Assembly (NCBI GenBank): GCA_963791095.1
Contig: CAWBRE010000012.1
Location: 9,370-73,369, forward strand
From: an uncultured Solirubrobacterales bacterium
GTDB taxonomy: Bacteria > Actinomycetota > Thermoleophilia > Solirubrobacterales > 70-9
Length of the DNA: 64,000 bases
Reading direction: 5' to 3'
Each line of letters opens with the position of its first letter. The stretch's first letter is position 1. A program made the translations under genes and the position numbers. The notes beneath the pieces were generated by a model. It was not told the origin of the DNA. It searched no databases and worked only from the letters and a program-made list of their open reading frames with translations. Of the stretch, positions 3,732 to 56,895 are shown in pieces.

Positions 3732-3862
3732 GCGTCTGCACAAACTCGTCCCAGCGACGAGTTGGTGCAGACGCGTCTGCATTTACCCCTCCAGGGCGGG
3801 GGCAAATGCAGACGCTCAGCGTCGTTGTCTGCATTTACCCCTCAGATACGAGAGGTAAATGC
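3732..3862. repeat. Cluster of three consecutive hairpins (family B, arm GCGTCTGCATTTACCCC) downstream of the MMPL gene
   Basis: 3732-3774: 19-bp stem with 1 mismatch. 3773-3815: 17-bp arms GCGTCTGCATTTACCCC / GGGGCAAATGCAGACGC. 3828-3862: a degenerate third copy. The same arm recurs at 15444-15484. Confidence 0.75.
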
Positions 3863-4748: not shown

Positions 4749-6105
4749 TGCCGTCGGTGCCCCCGGGGACGGAGCCGTCGCGCTCGCGCTCCTCGTCCCG
4801 GACCTCCTCTTCGTGGAGCATTTCCTCGTCGAGGTCGAGCCCCTGGTGGTGGAGGATGTGGCCCATCTTGTCGCGCTTGGTGCGCAGGTAGGCCTCGTTG
4901 TGGATGTTGGGCTGGGACTCGATCGGCACCTGCTCGGTGACCGACAGCCCGTAGCCCTCCATGCCGACGATCTTTTTCGGGTTGTTGGTGATGATGCGGA
5001 TGCTGGTCAGCCCCAGGTCGCCGAGGATCTGGGCGCCGATCCCGTAGTCGCGCAGGTCGGCGGGCAGGCCCAGCTTCAGGTTCGCCTCGACCGTGTCGGC
5101 GCCCTCCTCCTGCAGTTTGTAGGCGCGCAGCTTGTTCAGCAGGCCGATCCCCCGCCCCTCCTGGGAGAGGTAGAGGAGGACGCCGCGGCCCTCGTTCTCG
5201 ATCATCGCCAGCGAGGCCTCGAGCTGCTCGCCGCAGTCGCAGCGCATGCTGTGGAAGACGTCGCCGGTGAGGCACTCCGAGTGCACGCGGACGAGCACGT
5301 CCTCGATCCCGTCGACCTCGCCTTTGACCATCGCGACGTGGTGTTTGTCGTCGACCAGCGAGCGGTAGCCGACCGCGGTGAAGTCGCCGAAGGCGGTCGG
5401 CAGCGCCGTCGCCACCACCCGTTCGACCAGCTTCTCGGTCTTGCGCCGGTAGGCGATCAGGTCGGCGACGGTGACCATCTTCAGGTCGTGCTTGGCGCAG
5501 TAGGGGATCAGGTCGGGGACGCGGGCCATCGAGCCGTCGTCGTTCATCACCTCGCAGATCACCCCGGCCGGGATCAGCCCGGCGAGGCGGGCGAGGTCGA
5601 CCGAGGCCTCGGTGTGGCCGGTGCGCTCCAGCACGCCGCCCTCTTTCGCCTGCAGGGGGAACATGTGGCCGGGGACGACGATGTCGCGCGGGCCCGACTC
5701 GGGGTCGATCGCGACCTGGATCGTGTGGGCGCGGTCGTGGGCGGAGATCCCGGTGCTGACCCCGCCGGCGGCCTCGATCGAGACCGTGAAGGCGGTCTGC
5801 AGCGGCGCCTCGTTCTTGGCCGCCATCAGGTTCAGGCCGAGCTTGCGGCAGCGCTCCGGGGTCAGCGCCAGGCAGATCAGCCCGCGCGCCTCCTTGGCCA
5901 TGAAGTTGACCGCCTCCGGGGTGGCGAACTGCGCCGCCATCACCAGGTCGCCCTCGTTCTCGCGGTCTTCGCCGTCGCAGACGACGACCATCTTGCCGCG
6001 GCGGATCTCTTCGATCGCCTCCTCGATCGTGGCGAAGGCGCTCTCGATGCCGTCGCCCTGCTCGTCGATAGGGGTCTCCTGGGGGATGTCGGTCTCCTGA
6101 CTCAC
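4741..6105 (-). CDS. ribBA: Bifunctional 3,4-dihydroxy-2-butanone-4-phosphate synthase / GTP cyclohydrolase II
   Basis: C-terminal part of the 825-aa run-on ORF 4741..7218. Motifs DRENEGDLV (DHBPS) and [18 protein letters not shown] (GCH II). Start taken as GTG at 6105, preceded by GGAAAGGAG. Confidence 0.92.
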
Positions 6106-6708
6106 GCGTTCTCCTTTCCAGCAAATGGTGACAGCAGCCGCTCCACGTACTTGGCGATCACGTCGACCTCGACGTTCCAGGCGTCCCCGGGGGCGGCGTC
6201 GCCGAGGTTGGTGCGCTCCAAGGTCTCCGGGATCAGGCGAGACCTCTACCCAGGTGTCGCCGAGCTCGGCGATCGTGAGGCTGACGCCGTTCAGGGCGAC
6301 CGAGCCCTTGTCGACGACGTAGCGCCGCAGCTCGGGCGGGAGCTCGACCCGGATGCGGCGGGCGAAGCCGTCCTCGGTGACCTCGGTGACCCGGCCGGAG
6401 CCGTCGGCGTGGCCCTGGACGATGTGGCCGCCGAGGCGCTCGTCGGCGCGCGTCGCCAGCTCCAGGTTGACCCGGGCGCCGGCGTCGAGGGCGCCGATCA
6501 CGGTGACCTCGAGCGTCTGGTTCATCGCCTCGGTGGCGAAGCCGCCCGCGTCGGCCTCGGTGGCGGTGAGGCAGACGCCGTTGACGGCGATCGAGTCGCC
6601 GAGGCCGATCTCGGTGCCGAGCTTCGTCGCGATCCGCAGGCGCGCGCCGTCGGCGCCGCCCTCGACGCTCTCGACACTGCCGATGTCCTGCACCAGTCCG
6701 GTGAACAT
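6102..6708 (-). CDS. ribE: Riboflavin synthase alpha chain; reading frame broken by one extra base near 6237
   Basis: [36 protein letters not shown] reads in one frame. The expected C-terminus [44 protein letters not shown] reads in the +1 frame. That frame ends in a GTGA overlap with the ribBA start. Confidence 0.88.
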
Positions 6709-7994: not shown

Positions 7995-9080
7995 TTGAAG
8001 TTGATCATCCAGATCCCCTGCCTGAACGAGGAAGAGACGCTGCCGGCGACGATCGCCGACCTGCCGCGTGCCCTCGACGGCTTCGACTCGGTCGAGCTGC
8101 TCGTGATCGACGACGGGTCGACCGATCGCACCGTCGCGGTGGCGCGCGAATGCGGGGTCGAGCACATCGTCCGGCTGACCAACAACAAGGGCCTCGCGGC
8201 CGGGTTCCAGGCCGGGCTCGACGCCTGCCTGAAGCTGGGCGCCGACGTCGTCGTCAACACCGACGCCGACAACCAGTACGCGGGCGCCGACGTCGCCAAG
8301 CTGGTCGCCCCGATCCTCGCCGGCGAGGCCGACATGGTGGTCGGCAACCGCCAGGTCGACGGGATCGAGCACTTCTCCGACGCCAAGAAACAGCTCCAAC
8401 ACTGGGGCAGCTGGGTTGTAAGGCGCGTGTCGAACACCGAGGTCACCGACACCACCTCCGGCTTCCGCGCCTACAACCGCGAGGCGGCGCTGCAGCTCGC
8501 CGTGGTCGACAACTTCACCTACACGCTGGAGAGCCTGGTGCAGGCGGGCAAGATGCTGGTCGCCGTCGACGAGGTGCCGATCGCGACCAACCCGCAGACC
8601 CGCGAGTCGCGGCTGGCCGGCTCGACCGGCGACTACGTGCGCCGCAACACGCCCGCGATCCTGCGGATCTACGCCCGCTACGAGCCGCTGCGGGCCTTCG
8701 TCACGGCGGCGATCGTGGTCGGCGCGCTGGCCTTCGTCGCCTGGCTGCCGTTCCTGATCGACGCGATCTTCAACGGCAAGTCAAACGGCCACATCCAGTC
8801 GCTGATCCTCGGCGCGGTGCTGTTCATCGCCGCCGTGCAGCTGTTCGCGCTCGGCGTGATCGGCGACCTGCTGGCCGGGCAGCGGGTGATGACGCAGCGG
8901 ATCTTCGAGCGCGTGCGCCGGGTCGAGCTGGCCCTCGGCGTGCCGCCCTCGCACTACGAGAAGGGCTCGGCGCGCCCCGCCGCCTCCGAGCAGGAGACGA
9001 CGGTGCACGGAACCGCGCCCGCCGAGGCGCCGACCGAAGTGGCGGCGCCCGACGAAGGCGTAACCGAGGTGGACGCATGA
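7995..9080 (+). CDS. Family 2 glycosyltransferase with C-terminal TM segments (polyprenol-phosphate sugar transferase-like)
   Basis: 361 aa. Motifs IPCLNEEETL, VIDDGSTD, NTDADNQY, TSGFRAY. TTG start. Confidence 0.88.
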   Translation: MKLIIQIPCLNEEETLPATIADLPRALDGFDSVELLVIDDGSTDRTVAVARECGVEHIVRLTNNKGLAAGFQAGLDACLKLGADVVVNTDADNQYAGADVAKLVAPILAGEADMVVGNRQVDGIEHFSDAKKQLQHWGSWVVRRVSNTEVTDTTSGFRAYNREAALQLAVVDNFTYTLESLVQAGKMLVAVDEVPIATNPQTRESRLAGSTGDYVRRNTPAILRIYARYEPLRAFVTAAIVVGALAFVAWLPFLIDAIFNGKSNGHIQSLILGAVLFIAAVQLFALGVIGDLLAGQRVMTQRIFERVRRVELALGVPPSHYEKGSARPAASEQETTVHGTAPAEAPTEVAAPDEGVTEVDA

Positions 9081-15443: not shown

Positions 15444-15484
15444 CCGTCTGCATTTACCCCCGCCCTCGAGGGGTAAATGCAGAC
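15444..15484. repeat. Family B hairpin: CGTCTGCATTTACCCC-N9-GGGGTAAATGCAGACG (16-bp perfect stem)
   Basis: Read directly. Lies between fmt and rsmB. Same arm as at 3773-3815. Confidence 0.8.
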
Positions 15485-15510
15485 GCCCGCGCCGAGGCAA
15501 GCCCGGTGCG

Positions 15511-20080: not shown

Positions 20081-20132
20081 CGAGCCATTCCGTATGCGGC
20101 TCGGGCAGGCTGAAGCCGCATACGGAATGGCT
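20081..20132. repeat. Perfect 20-bp stem / 12-nt loop hairpin 3' of the decayed DUF559 gene
   Basis: GAGCCATTCCGTATGCGGCT-N12-AGCCGCATACGGAATGGCTC. Flanked by degenerate GTGCGGGAC-type tandem repeats. Confidence 0.75.
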
Positions 20133-20205
20133 CTGAGGCCGGCGGAGGGATGCGCGGGAGTGCGGGAGTGCGGGGCGCGATCTGGCCCTGGACGGTGCCG
20201 ACGGT

Positions 20206-29963: not shown

Positions 29964-30034
29964 GCGCCGCGCATCATTCCAGAGCGCAATGGGCGACGGC
30001 CCCGAGCCGAGACGGGGGCGAGTTCCCTTGCGCG

Positions 30035-30067
30035 GTGACTTATCCACCTGTGAGGGGGATAAGTCAC
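30035..30067. repeat. Family D hairpin, copy 1: GTGACTTATCC-ACCTGTGAGGG-GGATAAGTCAC
   Basis: 11-bp perfect stem. The loop/inner-arm motif CCCCC-N2-ACAGGTGGATAAG (reverse strand) recurs at 63066-63090. Confidence 0.7.
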
Positions 30068-31034
30068 CACGCAAGAGCTCAGGCCTCGCTGGGCCGACTC
30101 GCCGGGCGCCAGGAAGGCGTTGTGTCGAGGCGCCAGGTGGAAGCCCTCGGCATCTCGGCCCGCCAGGTGGATGGCATGGTGCGGGAAGGTCGCCTACTTC
30201 CCGTGTTTCGCGGCGCCCTTGCCTTGGGGCATGCGGCCATCGGGCCGCGGGCACGGATGCGGGCGGCGGGACTCGCCTGTCCAGGGTCGGTGATCTCGCA
30301 TCGGAGCGCGGCCGCATTGCTCGGGATCGGCAAGGTGGCGCCGGTCGTGGTCGACCTGATTCCTCTTCAGCAGCGCGGCCGGGGCATCGACGGGATCAAG
30401 GCTCACCGGGTTCCCTTCCCGAACCGAGCGGAATGGGGCTACGTTGGTGGGATCCCGGTCACGAGTGTGGCGCGGACGATCGTCGACCTGGCGGGGGTGC
30501 AAGGCGAAAGGCAACTGCGGGAATCGGTCGAGCGGGCGGCGACGGAGCGAATGCTGGACGTCGCCGGGATCGACGCGATCCTCGCCAATGGTCCGAAGCG
30601 AAGGGGAGCCCCGTGCCTTCGGCGGATCCTGGCCGACTGGCGGCCCGTCGCCGAAGCCGCGAAGTACGCCACCTTCCGCAGCCTCTTCGAGGCGAAGCTC
30701 CTGCCCTTGGTCGCCGCCACCGGACTGTCGCTCCCCCGATTCAACGCCCCGGTCCGCACGGCGGAGCGAACCCTCGAGGTCGACCTCCTCTGGGAGCACG
30801 CCCGCTTCGTCGTCGAAGCCGACAGCCGCAAGCACCACGGCATCGAGGTCGCCTTCGAGCGTGACCATCGCCGAGCCCGCGAACTGATTGCCGCCGGCTA
30901 TAGCCGTCCTCGGCGTCACCTGGCGCGAAGCGGAAACGAAGCCGCCCGCCGTCTTCGCCGTCATCCGCCAGGAGCTCGAGAAACGCGGCCCGCGGTCACC
31001 GGCCATCCGGACCCGGACTCGAGCCATCCCCTGA
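30035..31034 (+). CDS. DUF559 / AbiEi-like N-domain endonuclease-family protein; frame broken by one extra base near 30903
   Basis: ..GRLAGRQEGVVSRRQVEALGI..GIPVTSVARTIVDLAG..EVDLLWEHARFVVEADSRKHHG..RDHRRARELIAAGY reads in one frame. AVLGVTWREAETKPPAVFAVIRQELEKRGPRSPAIRTRTRAIP* reads in the +1 frame. The true start is uncertain, because the 5' end is the family D hairpin. Confidence 0.75.
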
Positions 31035-31112: not shown

Positions 31113-31166
31113 CGCGGCCCCACTTTGCCCACCTAAGTGCCAGTGAGGTGGGCAAAGTGGGGCCGC
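31113..31166. repeat. Perfect 21-bp stem / 12-nt loop hairpin 3' of the second DUF559 gene
   Basis: GCGGCCCCACTTTGCCCACCT-N12-AGGTGGGCAAAGTGGGGCCGC, about 80 nt after the corrected stop. Confidence 0.75.
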
Positions 31167-45883: not shown

Positions 45884-46441
45884 CTAATTGGCGGGAGGAA
45901 GTTCGTGATCTTCGCCCCCCACCGCCGGGTGGGTCGGCGCCGTCACGTCTACATAACTGAGCAACGTCACAGAAGGATCGGCCAGCACCTCCGCCGCCGA
46001 TTCCCACTTGCGCGCGACTTCGCGATCGTCGCCGAAGCGGATTTCGATCCCGGTGGCCGTCTCGAGGGCGACCCCGCTCTTGCCGTACTTGGCGCTCGCG
46101 ATGTAGCGGCGGATCGCGGCCGGAGCGGCGGCGATCACGTGCACCTCTTCGAGCACGTGGCCCTTCACCTGGTCGCCCTTCGGCCGTTTCTTCAGCGCCA
46201 GCACGACCAGGTGCTTCTGCTGCTTGCCGCCGCCGCCCTTGTTCGAGTCGGGGGCGGTGCGGGTGCCGAGGATCCTGCCGTCATCGCCGACCATGACCAC
46301 GGTCTTGCCCTCGCCGATCTGGGCCACCGGCGTCGTCGGCTGCGCCTCGGCGGTTGGGGTCGAGGAGCCGCGCAGGGCGAACCAGTAGACGGCCACGGCG
46401 GCGACCGCGACGACCGCGACGGCGATCAGCGCGCGCCTCAT
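45884..46441 (-). CDS. ftsQ: Short FtsQ/DivIB-like cell division protein
   Basis: MRRALIAVAVVAVAAVAVYWF (TM) plus a domain of about 150 aa. ATGA overlap with the murB stop. Assignment rests mainly on its position between murB and ftsZ. Confidence 0.55.
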   Translation of the reverse strand: MRRALIAVAVVAVAAVAVYWFALRGSSTPTAEAQPTTPVAQIGEGKTVVMVGDDGRILGTRTAPDSNKGGGGKQQKHLVVLALKKRPKGDQVKGHVLEEVHVIAAAPAAIRRYIASAKYGKSGVALETATGIEIRFGDDREVARKWESAAEVLADPSVTLLSYVDVTAPTHPAVGGEDHELPPAN

Positions 46442-47358
46442 GCGTCCTCCCAACCGGGGACGACGACGTCGCCCAGCACGTGCACCTCGGGCTCGAGCTC
46501 GACGCCGAACCGCTCCTTCACCCGGCGCCGCCCCTCGGCCATCAGCGCGAGCACGTCGGCGGTGGTCGCCTCGCCGGTGTTCTCGACGAAGTTCGCGTGC
46601 TTCTCGGAGAAGCGGGCGCCGCCGTGGGTGAGGCCGCGGCAGCCGGCCGCCTCCAGCAACTGCCCGGCAGAGCGGCCCTCGGCGCGCGCGTCCTCGGGGT
46701 TCTTGAAGGTGGAGCCGAAGGTCTTGATCCCGGAGGGCTGGGCCTCTTTGCGGCGGCCGCGCATCGAGGCGAGCGTGGCGCGCACCTCGTCGGGGTCGCT
46801 GGGCTCGAGCGCGAAGGAGGCGCGGGAGACCACTTCGCCCGCGGCCAGGTTGGAGTTGCGATAGGCGAAGCCGAAGGCGTCCGGGGTGCGCCGCTCGGTG
46901 CCGGCCGCGGTCGTCACCTCGACCCACTCCAGCACCTCGGCCAACTGCCCGCCGTAGGCGTTGGCGTTCATCCGTACCGCGCCACCGACGGTGCCGGGGA
47001 TGTTGACCCCGAACTCGAGCCCCGCCAGGCCCCAGCCCGGCGTCTTGCCGGCGACCGAGGGCAGCCGGGCGCCACCGCCGCAGCGCAGGTGCGTGCCATC
47101 GCGCTCGACCTCGGTCAACGCACCGTCCAACTTCATCGCCAGTCCTCGGAATCCGTCATCCGCTACCAGGAGGTTCGAGCCCGAGCCGACCACTCCTACC
47201 GGGACGGACGCCTTTTCTGCCCAGGCCAGCAGGGCGGCGAGGTCGTCTTGGGACGCAGGGCGGGCGAAGAAGTCGGCGGGGCCGCCGGTGCGGACCGTGG
47301 TGAGGCGGGCCAGGGGGTAGTCGCGCTCGACGCCGGGTGGGGGTTCGTTGTGGGAGGA
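46438..47358 (-). CDS. murB: UDP-N-acetylenolpyruvoylglucosamine reductase (C-terminal half of the fused 805-aa murC-murB ORF)
   Basis: ..YPLARLTTVRTGGPADFF..GSGSNLLVADDGFRG..GGAVRMNANAYGG..FKNP. No stop and no ATG separate it from murC. Confidence 0.85.
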   Translation of the reverse strand, partial: SSHNEPPPGVERDYPLARLTTVRTGGPADFFARPASQDDLAALLAWAEKASVPVGVVGSGSNLLVADDGFRGLAMKLDGALTEVERDGTHLRCGGGARLPSVAGKTPGWGLAGLEFGVNIPGTVGGAVRMNANAYGGQLAEVLEWVEVTTAAGTERRTPDAFGFAYRNSNLAAGEVVSRASFALEPSDPDEVRATLASMRGRRKEAQPSGIKTFGSTFKNPEDARAEGRSAGQLLEAAGCRGLTHGGARFSEKHANFVENTGEATTADVLALMAEGRRRVKERFGVELEPEVHVLGDVVVPGWEDA

Positions 47359-47425
47359 GGGGGACGAGGGGGACCCTTCCCTCACGAACTGCGGGGAGGT
47401 TCGTCCAGGGTCCCCCTCGTCCCCC
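47359..47425. repeat. Family A hairpin element, copy 3, forming the in-frame linker between murC and murB
   Basis: 19-bp perfect stem GGGGGACGAGGGGGACCCT/AGGGTCCCCCTCGTCCCCC around the identical 29-nt core. Translated as KGDEGDPGRTSPQFVREGSPSSP. Confidence 0.85.
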
Positions 47426-48855
47426 TTCACGGAAGCCTCGCCCGGGTTGGGGGATACCAGGGCCTCCCCCAGCTTGAAGATGTCTCCGGCGCCGATGGTG
47501 ACCAGGATGGAGCCCTCGGGAACGGATTCCAGGCGGCGCTTCAGGAACGCTTCGGCGCGGGCGGCGGTTGGGAGCCAGGCGACTGGTTTGCCCTTGCCTC
47601 GATCCGCGGCGGCTCGGGCTACGTCTAGGCCGCTGACGCCGGCCAGGGGGCCGATCGGCTCCTCGCGGGCGGGATAGACGTCGAGGACGGCGATCTCGTC
47701 GGCGAGGGCGAGGGCGGCGCCGAACTCGGCGGCGAAGACCTTGGTGCGCGAGTAGAGGTGGGGCTGGAAGACGGCGAGGAGGCGCGGCGGGGCCAGGCCG
47801 CGCAGGGCCGAGAGGGCGGCGCGGACCTCGGTCGGGTGGTGGGCGTAGTCGTCATATATGCGGACCCCCCCGCGCTCGCCCTTCACCTCAAGCCGGCGGC
47901 GGACGCCGCGGAAGTCGGCGAGCGCCGCGGCGGCGCGGTCGAGGTCGAACCCGGCGGCCTCGAGCGCCGCCAGCGCCGCGCGCGCGTTGAGCACGTTGTG
48001 AGCGCCGGGAACCGCGAGGTCGAGCGAGGCGGTCGGCGGCTTGGCGGCGGAGAACTCGGCGAGGGTCGGCGGAGCGTCCGGCGGAGCCACGGAGCCTCCG
48101 GTCGCGGCCACCGTCGGTCCGCCGACTAGCGCCTCGCGGACCTCCTCGACCGCGCCGCCCTCGCGGCTCGGGGCCGGCAGCACCGCCACGCGGGACTTGG
48201 CGGCGAAGCCGACGAAGGCCTCGATCAGCGGCTCGAGCGAGCCCCATTTCGAGTGGTGGTCCATCTCGACGTTGGTGATCACGGCGACCTCGGGGTCGAG
48301 GCGGAGGAAGCTGCCGTCGGACTCGTCGGCCTCGGCCACCACCCAGTCGCTCGCTCCCCAGCCTGCGTTGGCCGGGGCGCCGTCGGGACCGAGCCCGGGG
48401 ACCTCGCCGCCGACGAAGAAGGCCGGGTCCTCGCCCAGTCCGCGGAGGGCCCAGACCGCCATCGCGGTCGTCGTCGTCTTGCCGTGGGTGCCGGCGATCG
48501 CGATCAACCGCTTCTCCGCGCAGAGCTCGGCCAGCAGCTCGCCGCGGTGGATCACGGTGAGGCCGCGCTCATGGGCGAGGGCCAGCTCCGGGTTCTCGGC
48601 GGCGATCGCGGTCGAGACCACCACCTCCGCCCCCTCGGGCAGGTTGGCGGCGTCGTGGCCGATCGTCGGCTCGAGCCCCGCCGCCCGCAGACGCTCCATA
48701 TAAGAGGACTCGCTGCGGTCCGATCCGGTCACCTCGGCGCCGAGCCCGGCGCAGACCACCGCCAGCCCGCTCATCCCCGCCCCGCCGATGCCGATGAAGT
48801 GCAGCCGGCGCCCGCTCCAGTCCGTGCCCGTCACGCTTGGGCCCTGGCGCTGCAA
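47426..48855 (-). CDS. murC: UDP-N-acetylmuramate--L-alanine ligase (N-terminal half of the fused ORF)
   Basis: HFIGIGGAGMSGLA, IAGTHGKTTTTAM, DYAHHPTE, TIGAGDI. TTG 48855 or GTG about 48834 as start. Confidence 0.9.
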
Positions 48856-48862
48856 GGAGGTT

Positions 48863-48952
48863 GTAGACCTTGGTCGCCCACAGGGTTACCAAGCTCTACG
48901 ACCCCGGAGGGCTTCTGCCTTTTGTCGCCCACAGGGCGACAAAAGGCAGAAG
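48863..48952. repeat. Two tandem hairpins (family E) with different stems but the same loop motif CGCCCACAGGG, between murG and murC
   Basis: 48863-48899: 12-bp stem with 1 mismatch. 48912-48952: 18-19-bp perfect stem CTTCTGCCTTTTGTCGCC/GGCGACAAAAGGCAGAAG. Confidence 0.75.
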
Positions 48953-53992: not shown

Positions 53993-55396
53993 CTAGGCGG
54001 CCTCCGCCGCAAGCTCGGTGGCGATGCTCTCCATGCCGACCGCCCGGGAGCCCTTGATCAGGACCACGTCGCCCGCTTCCAGGTGGGACTCCAGCCACTC
54101 GGCCGCCTCGGCCGGGTCGGCGACGAGTTCATCCGGGTCGTAATCGCGGGCGGCGGCGCCGACCCCGAGCACGAGGTCGATCGACCTGCTGCGCGCATGG
54201 CCGCCGACGGCCCGGTGGTGCTCGACCGACTCCGGGCCCAGCTCGCCCATGCCGCCGAGGACGGCCACGGTGCGCGCCCCACCGAGGGTGGCGACGTAGT
54301 CGAGCGCCGCGCGCATCGACACCGGGTTGGCGTTGTAACAGTCGTTCACGAGGAGGATGCCGTCGGCGAGCTTCATCTGTTCGCCGCGAAAGCGGGAGAA
54401 GCCTATGCCCGCGGCGCGGACGGCCATCTCCTCGGGCCCGATCCCGAGCGCGACCCCGCCTGCCACCGCCGCCAGGGCGTTCGTCAGGTTGTACGGCTCG
54501 GCGAAGGGAAACCGGAAGCGCGCCTCGCCCAGCGGGGTGCTGATCAGGGCCGACGTCTCACCCGCGGCCACCTGGACCTCCGAGGCCGCGACGTCGCCCC
54601 CATCGCCGAAGCGCAGGAGGCGCGGGGCGCGCTCCAGGTGGGGCTCGAGCTCACCCGCCTCGACCGGCGCGATCGCGGTGCCGTCGGCGGGCAGGAAGTC
54701 GAGCACCTCGGCCTTGGCGGCGGCGATCGCCTCGACCGAGCCGAGCAGCTCGACGTGGACCGGGCCGACGTTGGTGATGATCGCCGCGTCGGGCTCGGCG
54801 ATCTGCGCCAGCTCGGCGATCTGGCCGGGCCCGCGCATCGCCATCTCGAGCACCAGGCGCTCGGTGTCGTCGGGCGCCTCGAGCACGGTCAGCGGCAGCC
54901 CGATCTCGGTGTTGAAGTTCTGCGTGTTGGCGTGCACGTTGCCGGGGAGGAGGGCGCGGGCGATGTCCTTGACCGAGGTCTTGCCGACCGAGCCGGTGAC
55001 CCCGAGGACCTGGGCGCCGAGCGCCCGCCGGCTGGCGGTGGCGAGGGATTGGAGCGCGGCGAGCGGATCCTCGGTGGCGAAGATCCAGGGCGGCCCGGCG
55101 GGACCGATCGGGGAGACAGGATTTGAACCTGCGATCGCTCGTCCCCCAGTCTCGTAGGCCGCAGCCACTAGCGCCTCGGTGAACTCGGGGCCGACGACCA
55201 CCCCCCAGGCCCCGGCCTCAATCGCAGCCGCGGCGAACTCGCCGCCATCGCGATGCTCGCCGCGCAGGCCGAAGAAGAGGTCACGGAGGCCGACCGCCGC
55301 GGAATCGATGACCGCGCGCTGCGGCAACTCCGAGGAGCCTTCGGCGAGCACCCGTGCGCCGGTCGCGCCCGCGATCTGCGCCCCGCCGAGCCTCAC
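53993..55396 (-). CDS. murF: UDP-N-acetylmuramoyl-tripeptide--D-alanyl-D-alanine ligase
   Basis: 467 aa. GVTGSVGKTS, NDCYNANP. GTGA overlap with the murE stop. Carries an atypical insertion of about 25 aa (see 55108-55180). Confidence 0.9.
   Translation of the reverse strand: MRLGGAQIAGATGARVLAEGSSELPQRAVIDSAAVGLRDLFFGLRGEHRDGGEFAAAAIEAGAWGVVVGPEFTEALVAAAYETGGRAIAGSNPVSPIGPAGPPWIFATEDPLAALQSLATASRRALGAQVLGVTGSVGKTSVKDIARALLPGNVHANTQNFNTEIGLPLTVLEAPDDTERLVLEMAMRGPGQIAELAQIAEPDAAIITNVGPVHVELLGSVEAIAAAKAEVLDFLPADGTAIAPVEAGELEPHLERAPRLLRFGDGGDVAASEVQVAAGETSALISTPLGEARFRFPFAEPYNLTNALAAVAGGVALGIGPEEMAVRAAGIGFSRFRGEQMKLADGILLVNDCYNANPVSMRAALDYVATLGGARTVAVLGGMGELGPESVEHHRAVGGHARSRSIDLVLGVGAAARDYDPDELVADPAEAAEWLESHLEAGDVVLIKGSRAVGMESIATELAAEAA
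55108..55180 (-). other. Degenerate tRNA-Pro(GGG)-like 73-nt segment embedded in frame in murF (not a functional tRNA)
   Basis: In the coding sense it reads ..GCGC-TAGTGGCT-GCGG..CTGGGGGACGAG-CGATC-GCAGG-TTCAAAT-CCTGT-CTCCCCG-A. The T arm, 3' acceptor strand and discriminator match my recollection of actinobacterial tRNA-Pro. The 5' acceptor and anticodon stem do not pair. A/T-ending codons (CTA, ACT, GGA, CGA, GCA, GGT, TCA, AAT, CCT) are atypical for this genome. Confidence 0.55.
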
Positions 55397-56895
55397 GCCG
55401 GGCTGCCCAGCTTGCGCAGCTCCTCGCGGGCGACCTCGCGGTCGTCGAAGGGGATCTTCCGCCCGCCCTCGAACTCCTGTCCCTGCTCATGACCCTTGCC
55501 GGCGATCACCACCGTGTCGCCGCGCCGGGCGCGGCCCAGCGCCAGTGCGATCGCGGCCTGGCGGTCGACCTCGACGATCAGCTCGGCATCGCCTTCGCGC
55601 GCCCCGGCGGCCACTTCGGCGACGATCGCCTCGGGGTCCTCGGAGCGCGGGTTGTCGGAGGTGACGATGGCGAGATCGGAGAGGACGCCGCCCGCCCGTC
55701 CCATCAGCGGTCGCTTGGCCTTGTCGCGGTCGCCGCCGGCGCCGAAGACGGCGATCAGCCTGCCCTCGGTGAGCCGGCGTGCCGCGCGCAGCACGTTCTC
55801 GACCGAGTCGGGGGTGTGGGCGTAGTCGACGAGGACGGCGAAGCCCTGGCCCTCGTCGACCGGCTCGAAGCGTCCCGGCACCCGCGCCGCCGCCGCCAGC
55901 CCCCGCGCCGCAGCCTCCGGCTCGACCCCGAGCGCCGTCGCCGCCGCGAACGCCCCGAGCGCGTTCGCCACGTTGAAGTGCCCCGGCATCCCCGTCCCCA
56001 CCCGCACCTCGGTGTCGATGGGCCGAAAACTCAAGCCCTTATGGTCCGGTTTTCGGCCCATCAACACGGTGAACTGGGCGCCCCCCGCGTCGAACTCGAC
56101 GTCGATGGCGCGGTAGTCGGCGTCGGCGCCTTCGGCGGAGAAGGTCAGGCACTCGAATTCCTCCGCCAGGCGCCGGCCGTAGGGATCGTCGACGTTGACG
56201 ATCCGCACCCCCGGCTCGGCTTCGAACAACTTGCGCTTGGCGACGAAGTAGTCCTCCATGTCGGCATGGAAGTCGAGGTGGTCCTGGGTCAGGTTGGTGA
56301 AGACGGCGGCGTCGAAATGGATCGCGTCGGCGCGGTGCAACACCATCGCGTGCGAAGAGACCTCCATCGCGCAGGCCTTGTCGCCACCCTCGAGCATCCG
56401 GCGGAACGTCTCCTGCAGGTCGATCGCCTCCGGGGTGGTCCGTTCGACCGGCTCCTCCTCCCCGCCGACCACCTGCTTGACCGTGCCCATCAGCCCGGTC
56501 TGGATCCCCGCCGCTTCGAGGATCTCGCGGGCCAGGTAGGCGGTCGTCGTCTTGCCGTTGGTGCCGGTCACCCCGACCACCTTCAGCTCCGCCGTCGGGT
56601 CGCCCCAGAAGGCGGACGCGAACGGCGCCATCGCCGCCCGCGCGCTCGGCACCACCACCTGCGGCACCGCGACCTCCAGCTCCCGCTCGACGACCAGCGC
56701 CACCGCCCCGGCCTCGACCACCTGCGCCGCAAACTCGTGCCCATCGCGCTTTTCCCCGACCACGCAGAAGAAAAGCGTCCCCGGACCCGCCTTGCGCGAG
56801 TCATAGGCGAGGTCGGCGATCTCGACCGTGGGATCGCCCAGGATTCGGGTCCGGTCCGCGCCCGAAGACGCTTTGAGGAGATCTTCCAGCTTCAC
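55393..56895 (-). CDS. murE: UDP-N-acetylmuramoyl-L-alanyl-D-glutamate--2,6-diaminopimelate ligase
   Basis: C-terminal 500 aa of ORF 55393..57519, from GTG 56895 (VKLEDLLK). GVTGTNGKTTT, DYAHTPD, GAGGDRD, DNPRSEDP. Confidence 0.92.
   Translation of the reverse strand: MKLEDLLKASSGADRTRILGDPTVEIADLAYDSRKAGPGTLFFCVVGEKRDGHEFAAQVVEAGAVALVVERELEVAVPQVVVPSARAAMAPFASAFWGDPTAELKVVGVTGTNGKTTTAYLAREILEAAGIQTGLMGTVKQVVGGEEEPVERTTPEAIDLQETFRRMLEGGDKACAMEVSSHAMVLHRADAIHFDAAVFTNLTQDHLDFHADMEDYFVAKRKLFEAEPGVRIVNVDDPYGRRLAEEFECLTFSAEGADADYRAIDVEFDAGGAQFTVLMGRKPDHKGLSFRPIDTEVRVGTGMPGHFNVANALGAFAAATALGVEPEAAARGLAAAARVPGRFEPVDEGQGFAVLVDYAHTPDSVENVLRAARRLTEGRLIAVFGAGGDRDKAKRPLMGRAGGVLSDLAIVTSDNPRSEDPEAIVAEVAAGAREGDAELIVEVDRQAAIALALGRARRGDTVVIAGKGHEQGQEFEGGRKIPFDDREVAREELRKLGSPA
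56017..56062. repeat. About 45-bp palindromic element inserted in frame in murE (14-bp perfect arms, 18-nt loop)
   Basis: GATGGGCCGAAAAC-TCAAGCCCTTATGGTCCG-GTTTTCGGCCCATC. Lower GC than its flanks. Translated as MGRKPDHKGLSFRPI, in a segment where MurE proteins normally have no such residues (from memory of E. coli and M. tuberculosis MurE). Confidence 0.7.

Follow-up and report, generated by a model that had tools for sequence, protein, structure and literature searches.

Can a piece of a tRNA gene persist, in frame and translated, inside the coding sequence of an essential cell wall enzyme, and if so, what keeps it there? The question is raised by a murF gene (UDP-MurNAc-tripeptide--D-Ala-D-Ala ligase) of an uncultured soil actinobacterium of the Solirubrobacterales, where it is part of a murE-murF-mraY-murD-ftsW-murG-murC/B cluster. 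The gene was analyzed in a 64,000-nt stretch of contig CAWBRE010000012.1, hereafter the window, whose positions are used throughout. An earlier reading of the letters alone (the sequence-only reading) had described positions 55180-55108 as a degenerate 73-nt tRNA-Pro, sense-oriented and in frame in murF; in the murF sense this segment is accgaggcgctagtggctgcggcctacgagaCTGGGGGACGAGCGATCGCAGGTTCAAATCCTGTCTCCCCGA, and its frame gives ..EALVAAAYETGGRAIAGSNPVSPIG... Pfam domains, MurF matches in the PDB and the synteny with two related loci (L115 and L116) all agree on the identity of the gene. In total, 7996 MurF homologues were retrieved, the best GTDB relatives being 77% identical to the window protein. 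Distribution was assessed in the 120 nearest MurF cluster representatives (73–100% identical to the query), nucleotide conservation in 10 lineages carrying the tRNA-Pro type of insert described below (Pro type; nine of them codon-aligned, MurF 74–88% identical), and dispersal in approximately 1.0 Mb of related dcw (division and cell wall) region DNA together with the 64-kb window.

A tRNA-Pro gene fragment inside murF

Judged by sequence identity, the 42 nt at 55149-55108 (Table 1) are a copy, in DNA, of the 3' part of a tRNA-Pro(GGG) gene; the copy starts with the first anticodon-loop base, ends with the discriminator and is read in the sense and frame of murF, as had been claimed. The final 25 nt (T arm, 3' acceptor strand and discriminator) had exact matches in 33 IMG/VR stretches, 30 of which were called tRNA-Pro by ARAGORN (anticodons TGG, CGG or GGG). 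A covariance model (CM) built from 22 real tRNA-Pro genes scored the block at 33.3 bits (E = 1.3e−6 over the whole 64 kb), with a runner-up at 15.8 bits, so the proposed likeness of the 3' part to tRNA-Pro was borne out. Annotated tRNA-Pro genes of Microbacterium phages were matched by the block as well (blastn). An orthologous block was found at the same position in nine related loci (L115, L116, L001, L324-L327, L330, and L333), where the sequence-only reading had advised looking for it. Between the insert of L333 and real tRNA-Pro(GGG) genes (L332, L089), 34/35 nt agree, the stem strand CCGAG among them, and both L330 and L333 continue after the discriminator with CTGG, like the trailer of the real GC-rich tRNA-Pro(GGG) gene L088, and not with CCA. 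Because of this trailer and the missing CCA, the source would be a gene or an att-type duplicate copied at the DNA level and not a mature tRNA. In L116 the T stem (CCCGG/CCGGG) and the acceptor CGCCCCG, followed by ACC, match another real tRNA-Pro allele exactly, which suggests that the site was either re-copied from tRNA genes or has been evolving within tRNA-like constraints.

Table 1 Features discussed in the text, with positions in the 64,000-nt window
Feature	Position	Strand	Remarks
murF (UDP-MurNAc-tripeptide--D-Ala-D-Ala ligase)	53993-55396	minus	ORF (open reading frame), 467 aa; Pfam Mur_ligase_M and Mur_ligase_C
Extra MurF loop (~residues 77-100) relative to insert-less relatives	55097-55168	minus	tRNA-derived codons are residues 83-97
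tRNA-Pro(GGG)-derived block	55108-55149	minus	42 nt; translated as (T)GGRAIAGSNPVSP(I)
Anticodon-loop copy CTGGGGG	55149-55143	minus	
Former 3' anticodon-stem strand ACGAG	55142-55138	minus	
Variable loop CGATC	55137-55133	minus	
T arm GCAGG-TTCAAAT-CCTGT	55132-55116	minus	Rfam T-arm match at 55116-55136
3' acceptor strand CTCCCCG	55115-55109	minus	
Discriminator A	55108	minus	
Remainder of the flagged segment	55150-55180	minus	Native E-A-L codons, then variable VAAAYE(T)
Native TGGGGGG (W64-G65 codons, conserved GAWGVVV motif)	55201-55207	minus	Could pair with CTCCCCG
In-frame murE hairpin GTGTTGATGGGCCGAAAACC...GTTTTCGGCCCATCGACAC	56012-56071	minus	Peptide VLMGRKPDHKGLSFRPIDT; −41.5 kcal/mol, z = −7.5, 0/200 shuffles as good
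Palindrome CTTCTGCCTTTTGTCGCCCACAGGGCGACAAAAGGCAGAAG	48912-48952	.	Hairpin scan; 129-nt murG-murC gap (flanking genes by Pfam)

The upstream 31 nt of the flagged segment did not fare likewise. Its E-A-L codons are present in insert-less homologues and are thus native to murF, while the stretch between L76 and T83 is different in every relative (the rare codons CTA and GCT fall within 55150-55180). In the CM alignment the D arm is deleted and three of the five anticodon-stem pairs are unpaired, hence the D-arm-like 5' half that had been proposed appears to be ordinary variable murF sequence, and there is no evidence that a whole 73-nt tRNA once stood here. ARAGORN found no tRNA gene in the window, and the Rfam tRNA model (RF00005) aligned the T arm alone, at 13 bits against a gathering score of 29 bits. 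A degenerate full-length tRNA was rejected on these three grounds. Upstream of the anticodon loop, the resemblance to tRNA in these alignments appears no better than chance, and the block is not a tRNA gene, as the 5' acceptor strand, the D arm and the 5' anticodon-stem strand are all absent.

The missing acceptor strand could have a native substitute. TGGGGGG at the W64-G65 codons would, by the CM alignment and the minimum free energy fold (z = −2.1), pair with CTCCCCG and complete an acceptor-like helix that stacks onto the T arm. RNAalifold places this helix in the consensus of 10 Pro-type sequences, with zero covariation and both strands invariant, and no equivalent partner was found in several of the other cassette types. 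The pairing is possible only, and a long-range acceptor helix was rejected as a conserved feature: it occurs in all Pro-type sequences, but its strands are invariant for other reasons.

How could such a fragment have reached murF? The stretch that was copied, from the anticodon loop to the tRNA's 3' end plus a few trailer bases, coincides with the span of an att core of elements that integrate at tRNA-Pro genes. pSAM2 of Streptomyces is one such element, and the actinobacteriophage world offers the best database match: in a blastn search against phage genomes, window positions 55151-55108 matched the attP region of mycobacteriophage Giles (38/44 nt, E = 1e−5), the target being a non-coding gap adjoining the integrase of Giles and its relatives. 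The attB site that Giles uses is situated at a tRNA-Pro gene's 3' end (PMC11551767). Moreover, three of the 33 IMG/VR stretches with the exact 25-mer are 3'-halves for which no tRNA was called, and because no tRNA is present there, they look like att-type copies. The block could on these grounds be a relic of integration, as the sequence-only reading had considered, in the form of an attB- or attP-type core left behind by aberrant recombination; it would possibly still act as a secondary attachment site or decoy. The extent of the copy fits this proposal. However, no integrase, island, flanking or second direct repeat was found at the murF site, murE-murF-mraY and the other dcw genes are contiguous in every locus that was fetched, as they are in the window, integration into an essential murF would kill the cell, and excision by a tyrosine recombinase leaves no footprint. 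It would also leave the nucleotide conservation and the other cassette types described below unexplained, and we consider it very improbable. A related model, with the native CTGGGGGG at W64-G65 as secondary attB, was rejected since the segment order that it predicts does not match the gene.

A loop predicted to be disordered, with rare codons

Within residues 79-98, nine of 20 codons end in A or T, compared to 28 of 447 elsewhere in murF (Fisher p = 4e−6), which agrees with the rare codons pointed out earlier; between residues 76 and 98 there are eleven such codons, each making up 0.7–5% of its own codon family. The extra loop of about 25 residues was likewise confirmed when MurF orthologues were aligned, as it is absent from both close and distant proteins. 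Relative to the best-matching solved structure (S. pneumoniae MurF, 2AM1) the loop has 38 residues vs. 11, i.e., 27 more, and the distance between the GAWGVVV and W(I/V)F anchors is 35 residues vs. 11–13 in insert-less relatives. About 24–27 residues are thus added to the loop linking the N-terminal and central domains. The AlphaFold model has a mean pLDDT (predicted local distance difference test) of 79, falling below 50 at residues 83-87 and 89-99, which include most of the tRNA-derived codons and lie between a helix (70-82) and the strand (104-107) that opens the next domain. Given these low values and this position, the peptide looks like a disordered surface loop, and the insert is accordingly predicted by the model to be translated into one. 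The site behaves as permissive for in-frame insertion, with predicted disorder and with the insert missing in relatives and in PDB homologues. A catalytic role of the insert in MurF is unlikely.

Conservation at the nucleic acid level

Across the 10 Pro-type lineages, CTGGGGG, CGGTC, the T arm and CTCCCCGA form nearly invariant blocks. The 5-mer between CTGGGGG and CGGTC, i.e., the former 3' anticodon-stem strand that is now without a partner, differs in almost every lineage (ACGAG, GCGGC, CCAGG, GCAGC, GCAAG, ACAGG, CAAAT, CCGAG). In the codon preceding GGG, the C and T at positions 2 and 3 (equivalents of C32 and U33) are fixed, and the varying first base yields T, P, A or S. The A/T third bases of GCA GGT TCA AAT CCT are kept in 8, 9, 9, 9, and 7 of nine lineages, as opposed to only four of the 26 other A/T-ending codons of the window murF being kept in at least seven of nine. 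Taking all cassette types together, 94% of the T-stem cells are paired, and pair 8-20 of this stem (alignment A2) appears as U-A (6), A-U (4), C-G (1) and G-C (1), changed through synonymous third positions of the flanking codons; the observed covariation score was not equaled in any of 500 shuffles. These comparative sequence data indicate that conservation acts on the nucleic acid and not on the peptide, with the T stem kept paired by synonymous compensatory changes. The DNA of the block is conserved to a degree beyond what the protein requires, which is unusual.

The same observations dispose of another account, in which the resemblance is due to chance or to a protein-selected motif (VAGSNPVSP) that happens to look like a T arm. 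Of the 120 nearest relatives, 26 do conserve the motif as a peptide, but the 25-nt identity to real tRNA-Pro genes is exact and extends to 34/35 over a longer block in L333, rare synonymous codons are conserved, amino acids change where base pairs stay, and the peptide is predicted to be disordered. This account is effectively refuted.

Another reading is a function of the RNA itself. In the murF mRNA, a mimic of the tRNA top half (minihelix) could be made up of the T arm, the G-run and the acceptor-like strand, or the element could be a local structure by which the dcw transcript is adjusted in its processing, decay or translation, and it would have replaced an ancestral long hairpin (see below); candidate readers would be RNase P or Z, TruB/TrmA, the CCA-adding enzyme, ProRS (prolyl-tRNA synthetase) or TrmD. 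The pattern of constraint is tRNA-like, with loops, T arm and acceptor fixed and the unpaired former stem strand free, the C32/U33 equivalents are retained despite changes of the codon's first base and of the amino acid, and the T stem covaries synonymously. Stems are paired even where the acceptor part is no longer tRNA-like (L328, L329, L331), GGGGG can pair with CUCCCC as the native UGGGGGG can with CUCCCCG, and strongly covarying hairpins occupy the same murF slot, and murE, across the order. What speaks against such a function is that 30 of the 120 nearest relatives have lost the insert and that it is quickly replaced even within a 90%-identity cluster, that its folding is thermodynamically unexceptional, that the A58 equivalent is mutated in several lineages and the closing helix is unconserved in other cassette types, that cleavage within an essential coding sequence would ruin the message, and that no Rfam family matches. 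We therefore regard a functional cis-acting RNA of this kind as doubtful. As for the T-arm type acting as a thermodynamic pause hairpin, this candidate was rejected, its folding energy being ordinary for GC-rich murF. A tRNA-like function in the strict sense (aminoacylation, decoding) is judged to be excluded.

Distribution and turnover among relatives

The Pro-type insert is confined to a single clade of uncultured Solirubrobacterales. The 120 nearest MurF clusters divide into 26 with the same Pro type (..GG[RQK]x[VI]xGS[NDK]PxxP..), 34 with G-S-x-P cassettes that are T-arm-like but of other types, 30 lacking an insert and 30 with a loop of some other kind. At the DNA level, G-S-x-P is encoded in the 18 T-arm-type loci always by GGT TCN ... 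CCN, corresponding to G53-T54-T55-C56 and C61-C62 of a T arm. The rough neighbour-joining tree scatters the Pro type through the window's clade, the earliest branches included, and sisters of Pro-type lineages carry other cassette types or nothing. Within the clade, the block has been retained, reshaped into other 24-nt G-S-x-P cassettes that resemble a T arm (in some cases with two in tandem) or lost. This turnover is fast: the window protein's own 90%-identity cluster has two other members with different loops, one of them (P0121) holding two tandem cassettes. Some cassettes are flanked by short direct repeats with a 24-nt period, such as GCTGGTTCG in L121, which are equally readable as tandem duplication of the unit. 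For the non-Pro cassettes of the GCTGG... and ACTGG... types, blastn gave nothing beyond generic T-arm matches, to tRNA-Asn, Phe, Ile and Val.

A third cassette type (..GVG(Y/N)PSQGRVSHTA..), encoded by the hairpin GTGTGGGTTATCCGTCCCAGGGACGGGTTTCCCACAC, occurs in the loops of L014, L120 and L126 and in P0012, P0015, P0049, P0094, etc., being in tandem in P0094 and standing beside a decayed Pro-type cassette in P0083. In L121 (2683-2763), the murF insert was called as 'tRNA-???' by ARAGORN, which paired CGTGCCC of the cassette with the native upstream GGGCGCG (G-A codons).

Stacks and replacements of this sort might be the work of selfish or mobile hairpin cassettes (similar to repetitive extragenic palindromic, REP, sequences, MITEs, short for miniature inverted-repeat transposable elements, or Rickettsia palindromic elements, RPEs) that are moved by a transposase or recombinase and repeatedly enter the loop, the tRNA piece being one such cassette without use to the host. 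Different types and tandem stacks share the loop (P0083, P0031, P0075, P0094, P0121), sister lineages have different types, intergenic palindromes resemble murF hairpins, with one in a murG-murC gap that is absent from relatives, and in-frame palindromic elements are known in Rickettsia (PMC10969869). The tRNA-like block, however, is not dispersed in the DNA examined. In the related dcw regions, the CM matched only at the murF loop and at one real tRNA-Gln, and the 22 strict T-arm motifs found there comprise 12 at the murF loop, one in a real tRNA and nine that belong to one conserved mraY coding motif; in the window itself the block is the single CM match, so that in the DNA examined no multi-copy family was seen. 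The tRNA-derived mobile sequence that had been suggested is therefore not supported, tRNA-like pieces in this DNA occurring, one real tRNA aside, only at the murF site. Apart from the short direct repeats beside some cassettes, there was no sign in the vicinity of a transposase, of terminal inverted repeats or of target duplications, and the long hairpins of other lineages appear orthologous, changing by compensatory substitution rather than by turnover. Mobile cassettes are in our view an unlikely explanation.

Several other matches surfaced in the dispersal data. CM matches in murD (L170, L056, L027, L192; 15–17 bits) were rejected as a conserved coding motif rather than tRNA pieces. The perfect T-arm-like motif GTCGG-TTCGAGG-CCGAC is found antisense at one conserved mraY position in nine loci, approximately 1.56 kb downstream of the murF loop (e.g., L015:4611, L040:4764), and is read as a by-product of a conserved protein motif. 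In L003, a real tRNA-Gln(TTG) gene (6061-6133) and two long palindromes (5677-5725, 5917-5974) lie between mraY and murD.

Hairpins in murF and murE across the order

More distant Solirubrobacterales (62–70% MurF identity) have an unrelated in-frame hairpin of 17–22 bp in the same MurF loop, e.g., in L064 with −54 kcal/mol. In its 60-nt version, compared across 40 genomes, compensatory double changes were seen at 15 of the 17 predicted pairs, and for 55 of the 137 loci the loop-coding stretch folded better than every control window of murF. By its sequence comparisons the long murF hairpin looks like an undescribed intragenic structured element. It was seen in most Solirubrobacterales outside the window's clade (loci L008-L195, e.g., L053:3205-3264 and L064:3198-3246), with a conserved core TCCTTTG..CAAAGGA and a loop close to GGATAGC or its reverse complement. 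The window's own murE holds another in-frame hairpin (Table 1), whose GGGCCGAAAA..TTTTCGGCCC pattern is conserved in 17 related loci, where it occupies the same position of murE. Neither the murE nor the long murF hairpins matched an Rfam family, the only matches being sub-threshold ones to generic microRNA precursors.

These hairpins allow a broader functional reading, in which murF, and separately murE, would hold a slot for structured RNA, i.e., an in-frame hairpin acting in cis on the dcw transcript (through its processing or decay, or by pacing ribosomes where two domains meet), the ancestral murF hairpin having been replaced in the window's clade by a mimic of the T arm or minihelix of tRNA-Pro. 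We hold this to be rather doubtful. Should it be true, a piece of a tRNA gene would have been exapted at once as coding sequence and as RNA signal.

Proposed explanation

In the explanation that we put first, a fragment of a tRNA-Pro gene would have been captured as DNA, from the gene or from an att-type copy, probably via illegitimate recombination into an insertion-tolerant, hairpin-prone loop of MurF, which elsewhere in the Solirubrobacterales carries the unrelated, strongly covarying in-frame hairpin. The insert would then persist as a small stem-loop in the murF DNA or mRNA, with a putative role, and the peptide would be a passenger. What maintains its pairing may be weak selection on an RNA hairpin that acts in cis within the dcw transcript, or else copy-correction, either as conversion from tRNA genes or as hairpin-templated repair. 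A recombination scar, also raised by the sequence-only reading, is possible, but alone it leaves the nucleotide conservation across lineages unexplained. Our confidence in the capture of a tRNA gene fragment that was kept as a stem-loop is balanced by an equal measure of doubt.

A number of points weigh against it. A quarter of the close relatives (30 of 120) have no insert at all, and it is therefore dispensable. The A58 equivalent of the T loop is changed to G in L001 and L330, and some cassettes also have G there, so an authentic T-loop fold is not required. T-arm inserts are not unusually stable relative to other murF windows (window z = +0.24), and with such ordinary folding a strong pausing or stability role is unlikely. 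Template-switch mutation can produce covariation in inverted repeats without selection, and the allele of L116 fits re-copying from tRNA genes better than selection in situ. Furthermore, the MurF tree is a rough neighbour-joining tree with no bootstrap, and the tRNA-Pro genes used in the comparisons were all from IMG/VR, phages and other loci.

Comparison with known systems and implications

The literature search yielded no prior report of an essential bacterial enzyme in which a fragment of a tRNA gene is translated and can still be recognised, and the known systems resemble the murF insert only in part. RPEs are palindromic elements found in frame within housekeeping genes and translated as an extra surface peptide (PMC10969869). 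They and intragenic MITEs share with the murF insert that short structured DNA stands in frame, at positions tolerated by the protein, and is translated (PMC10969869), but RPEs are approximately 150 bp long, multi-copy, dispersed and not derived from tRNA, whereas the insert is a 42-nt tRNA gene fragment, at one site only in the DNA examined, with nucleotide conservation throughout the lineage. The att cores of integrative elements that target tRNA-Pro (Giles) comprise the same stretch of the tRNA, anticodon loop through 3' end, but the murF copy has no integrase or island, lies inside an essential ORF, is translated and is inherited vertically across the clade. In eukaryotes, exonised short interspersed nuclear elements (SINEs) are tRNA-derived sequences turned protein-coding, which are retrotransposed, spliced and multi-copy. 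The murF insert likewise puts tRNA-derived sequence within a coding sequence, but it occupies a single bacterial locus and has a gene-like 3' trailer in place of a CCA tail, which points to an origin at the DNA level. TruB, Pus4 and TRUB1 modify T-arm-like stem-loops in mRNAs, and these motifs are convergent. Like them, the insert has a 5-bp stem and a 7-nt loop of the GUUCNANNC type in a coding region, but it is a copy of a tRNA gene.

The locus offers a clean example from nature in which a coding sequence is subject to a further constraint, at the level of the nucleic acid, and indicates that tRNA genes or their att-type copies can seed new coding sequence. Taken together with the covarying hairpins of murF and murE across the order, it points to undescribed intragenic RNA elements in a cell wall operon, or to RPE-like selfish DNA in Actinomycetota. 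On the practical side, such inserts can yield false tRNA calls, as ARAGORN did in L121, and the apparent variability of MurF is inflated by them.

Other features of the window

The CM runner-up (8607-8673, minus strand; E = 0.057) is a full-length match in a GC-rich coding region and is probably due to chance. The core of the palindrome between murG and murC (Table 1) resembles the in-frame murF hairpins of other Solirubrobacterales (L059, L037); in L115 and L116 the two genes overlap and the gap holding the palindrome is absent. Further long, near-perfect palindromes, mostly intergenic, were located at 3732-3774, 3831-3862, 15445-15485, 20082-20133, 30027-30075 and 31114-31166, with CGTCTGCA common to those at 3732 and 15445 and GCATTTACCCC to those at 15445 and 3831, and the palindromes of the window are possibly a REP-like family. 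Lastly, murC and murB form one continuous ORF of 805 aa in the window (46438-48855, minus strand), with Mur ligase domains followed by FAD_binding_4 and MurB_C, while they are separate and overlapping in L115 and L116; the single ORF is a gene fusion or else reflects a missed stop or a change of frame.

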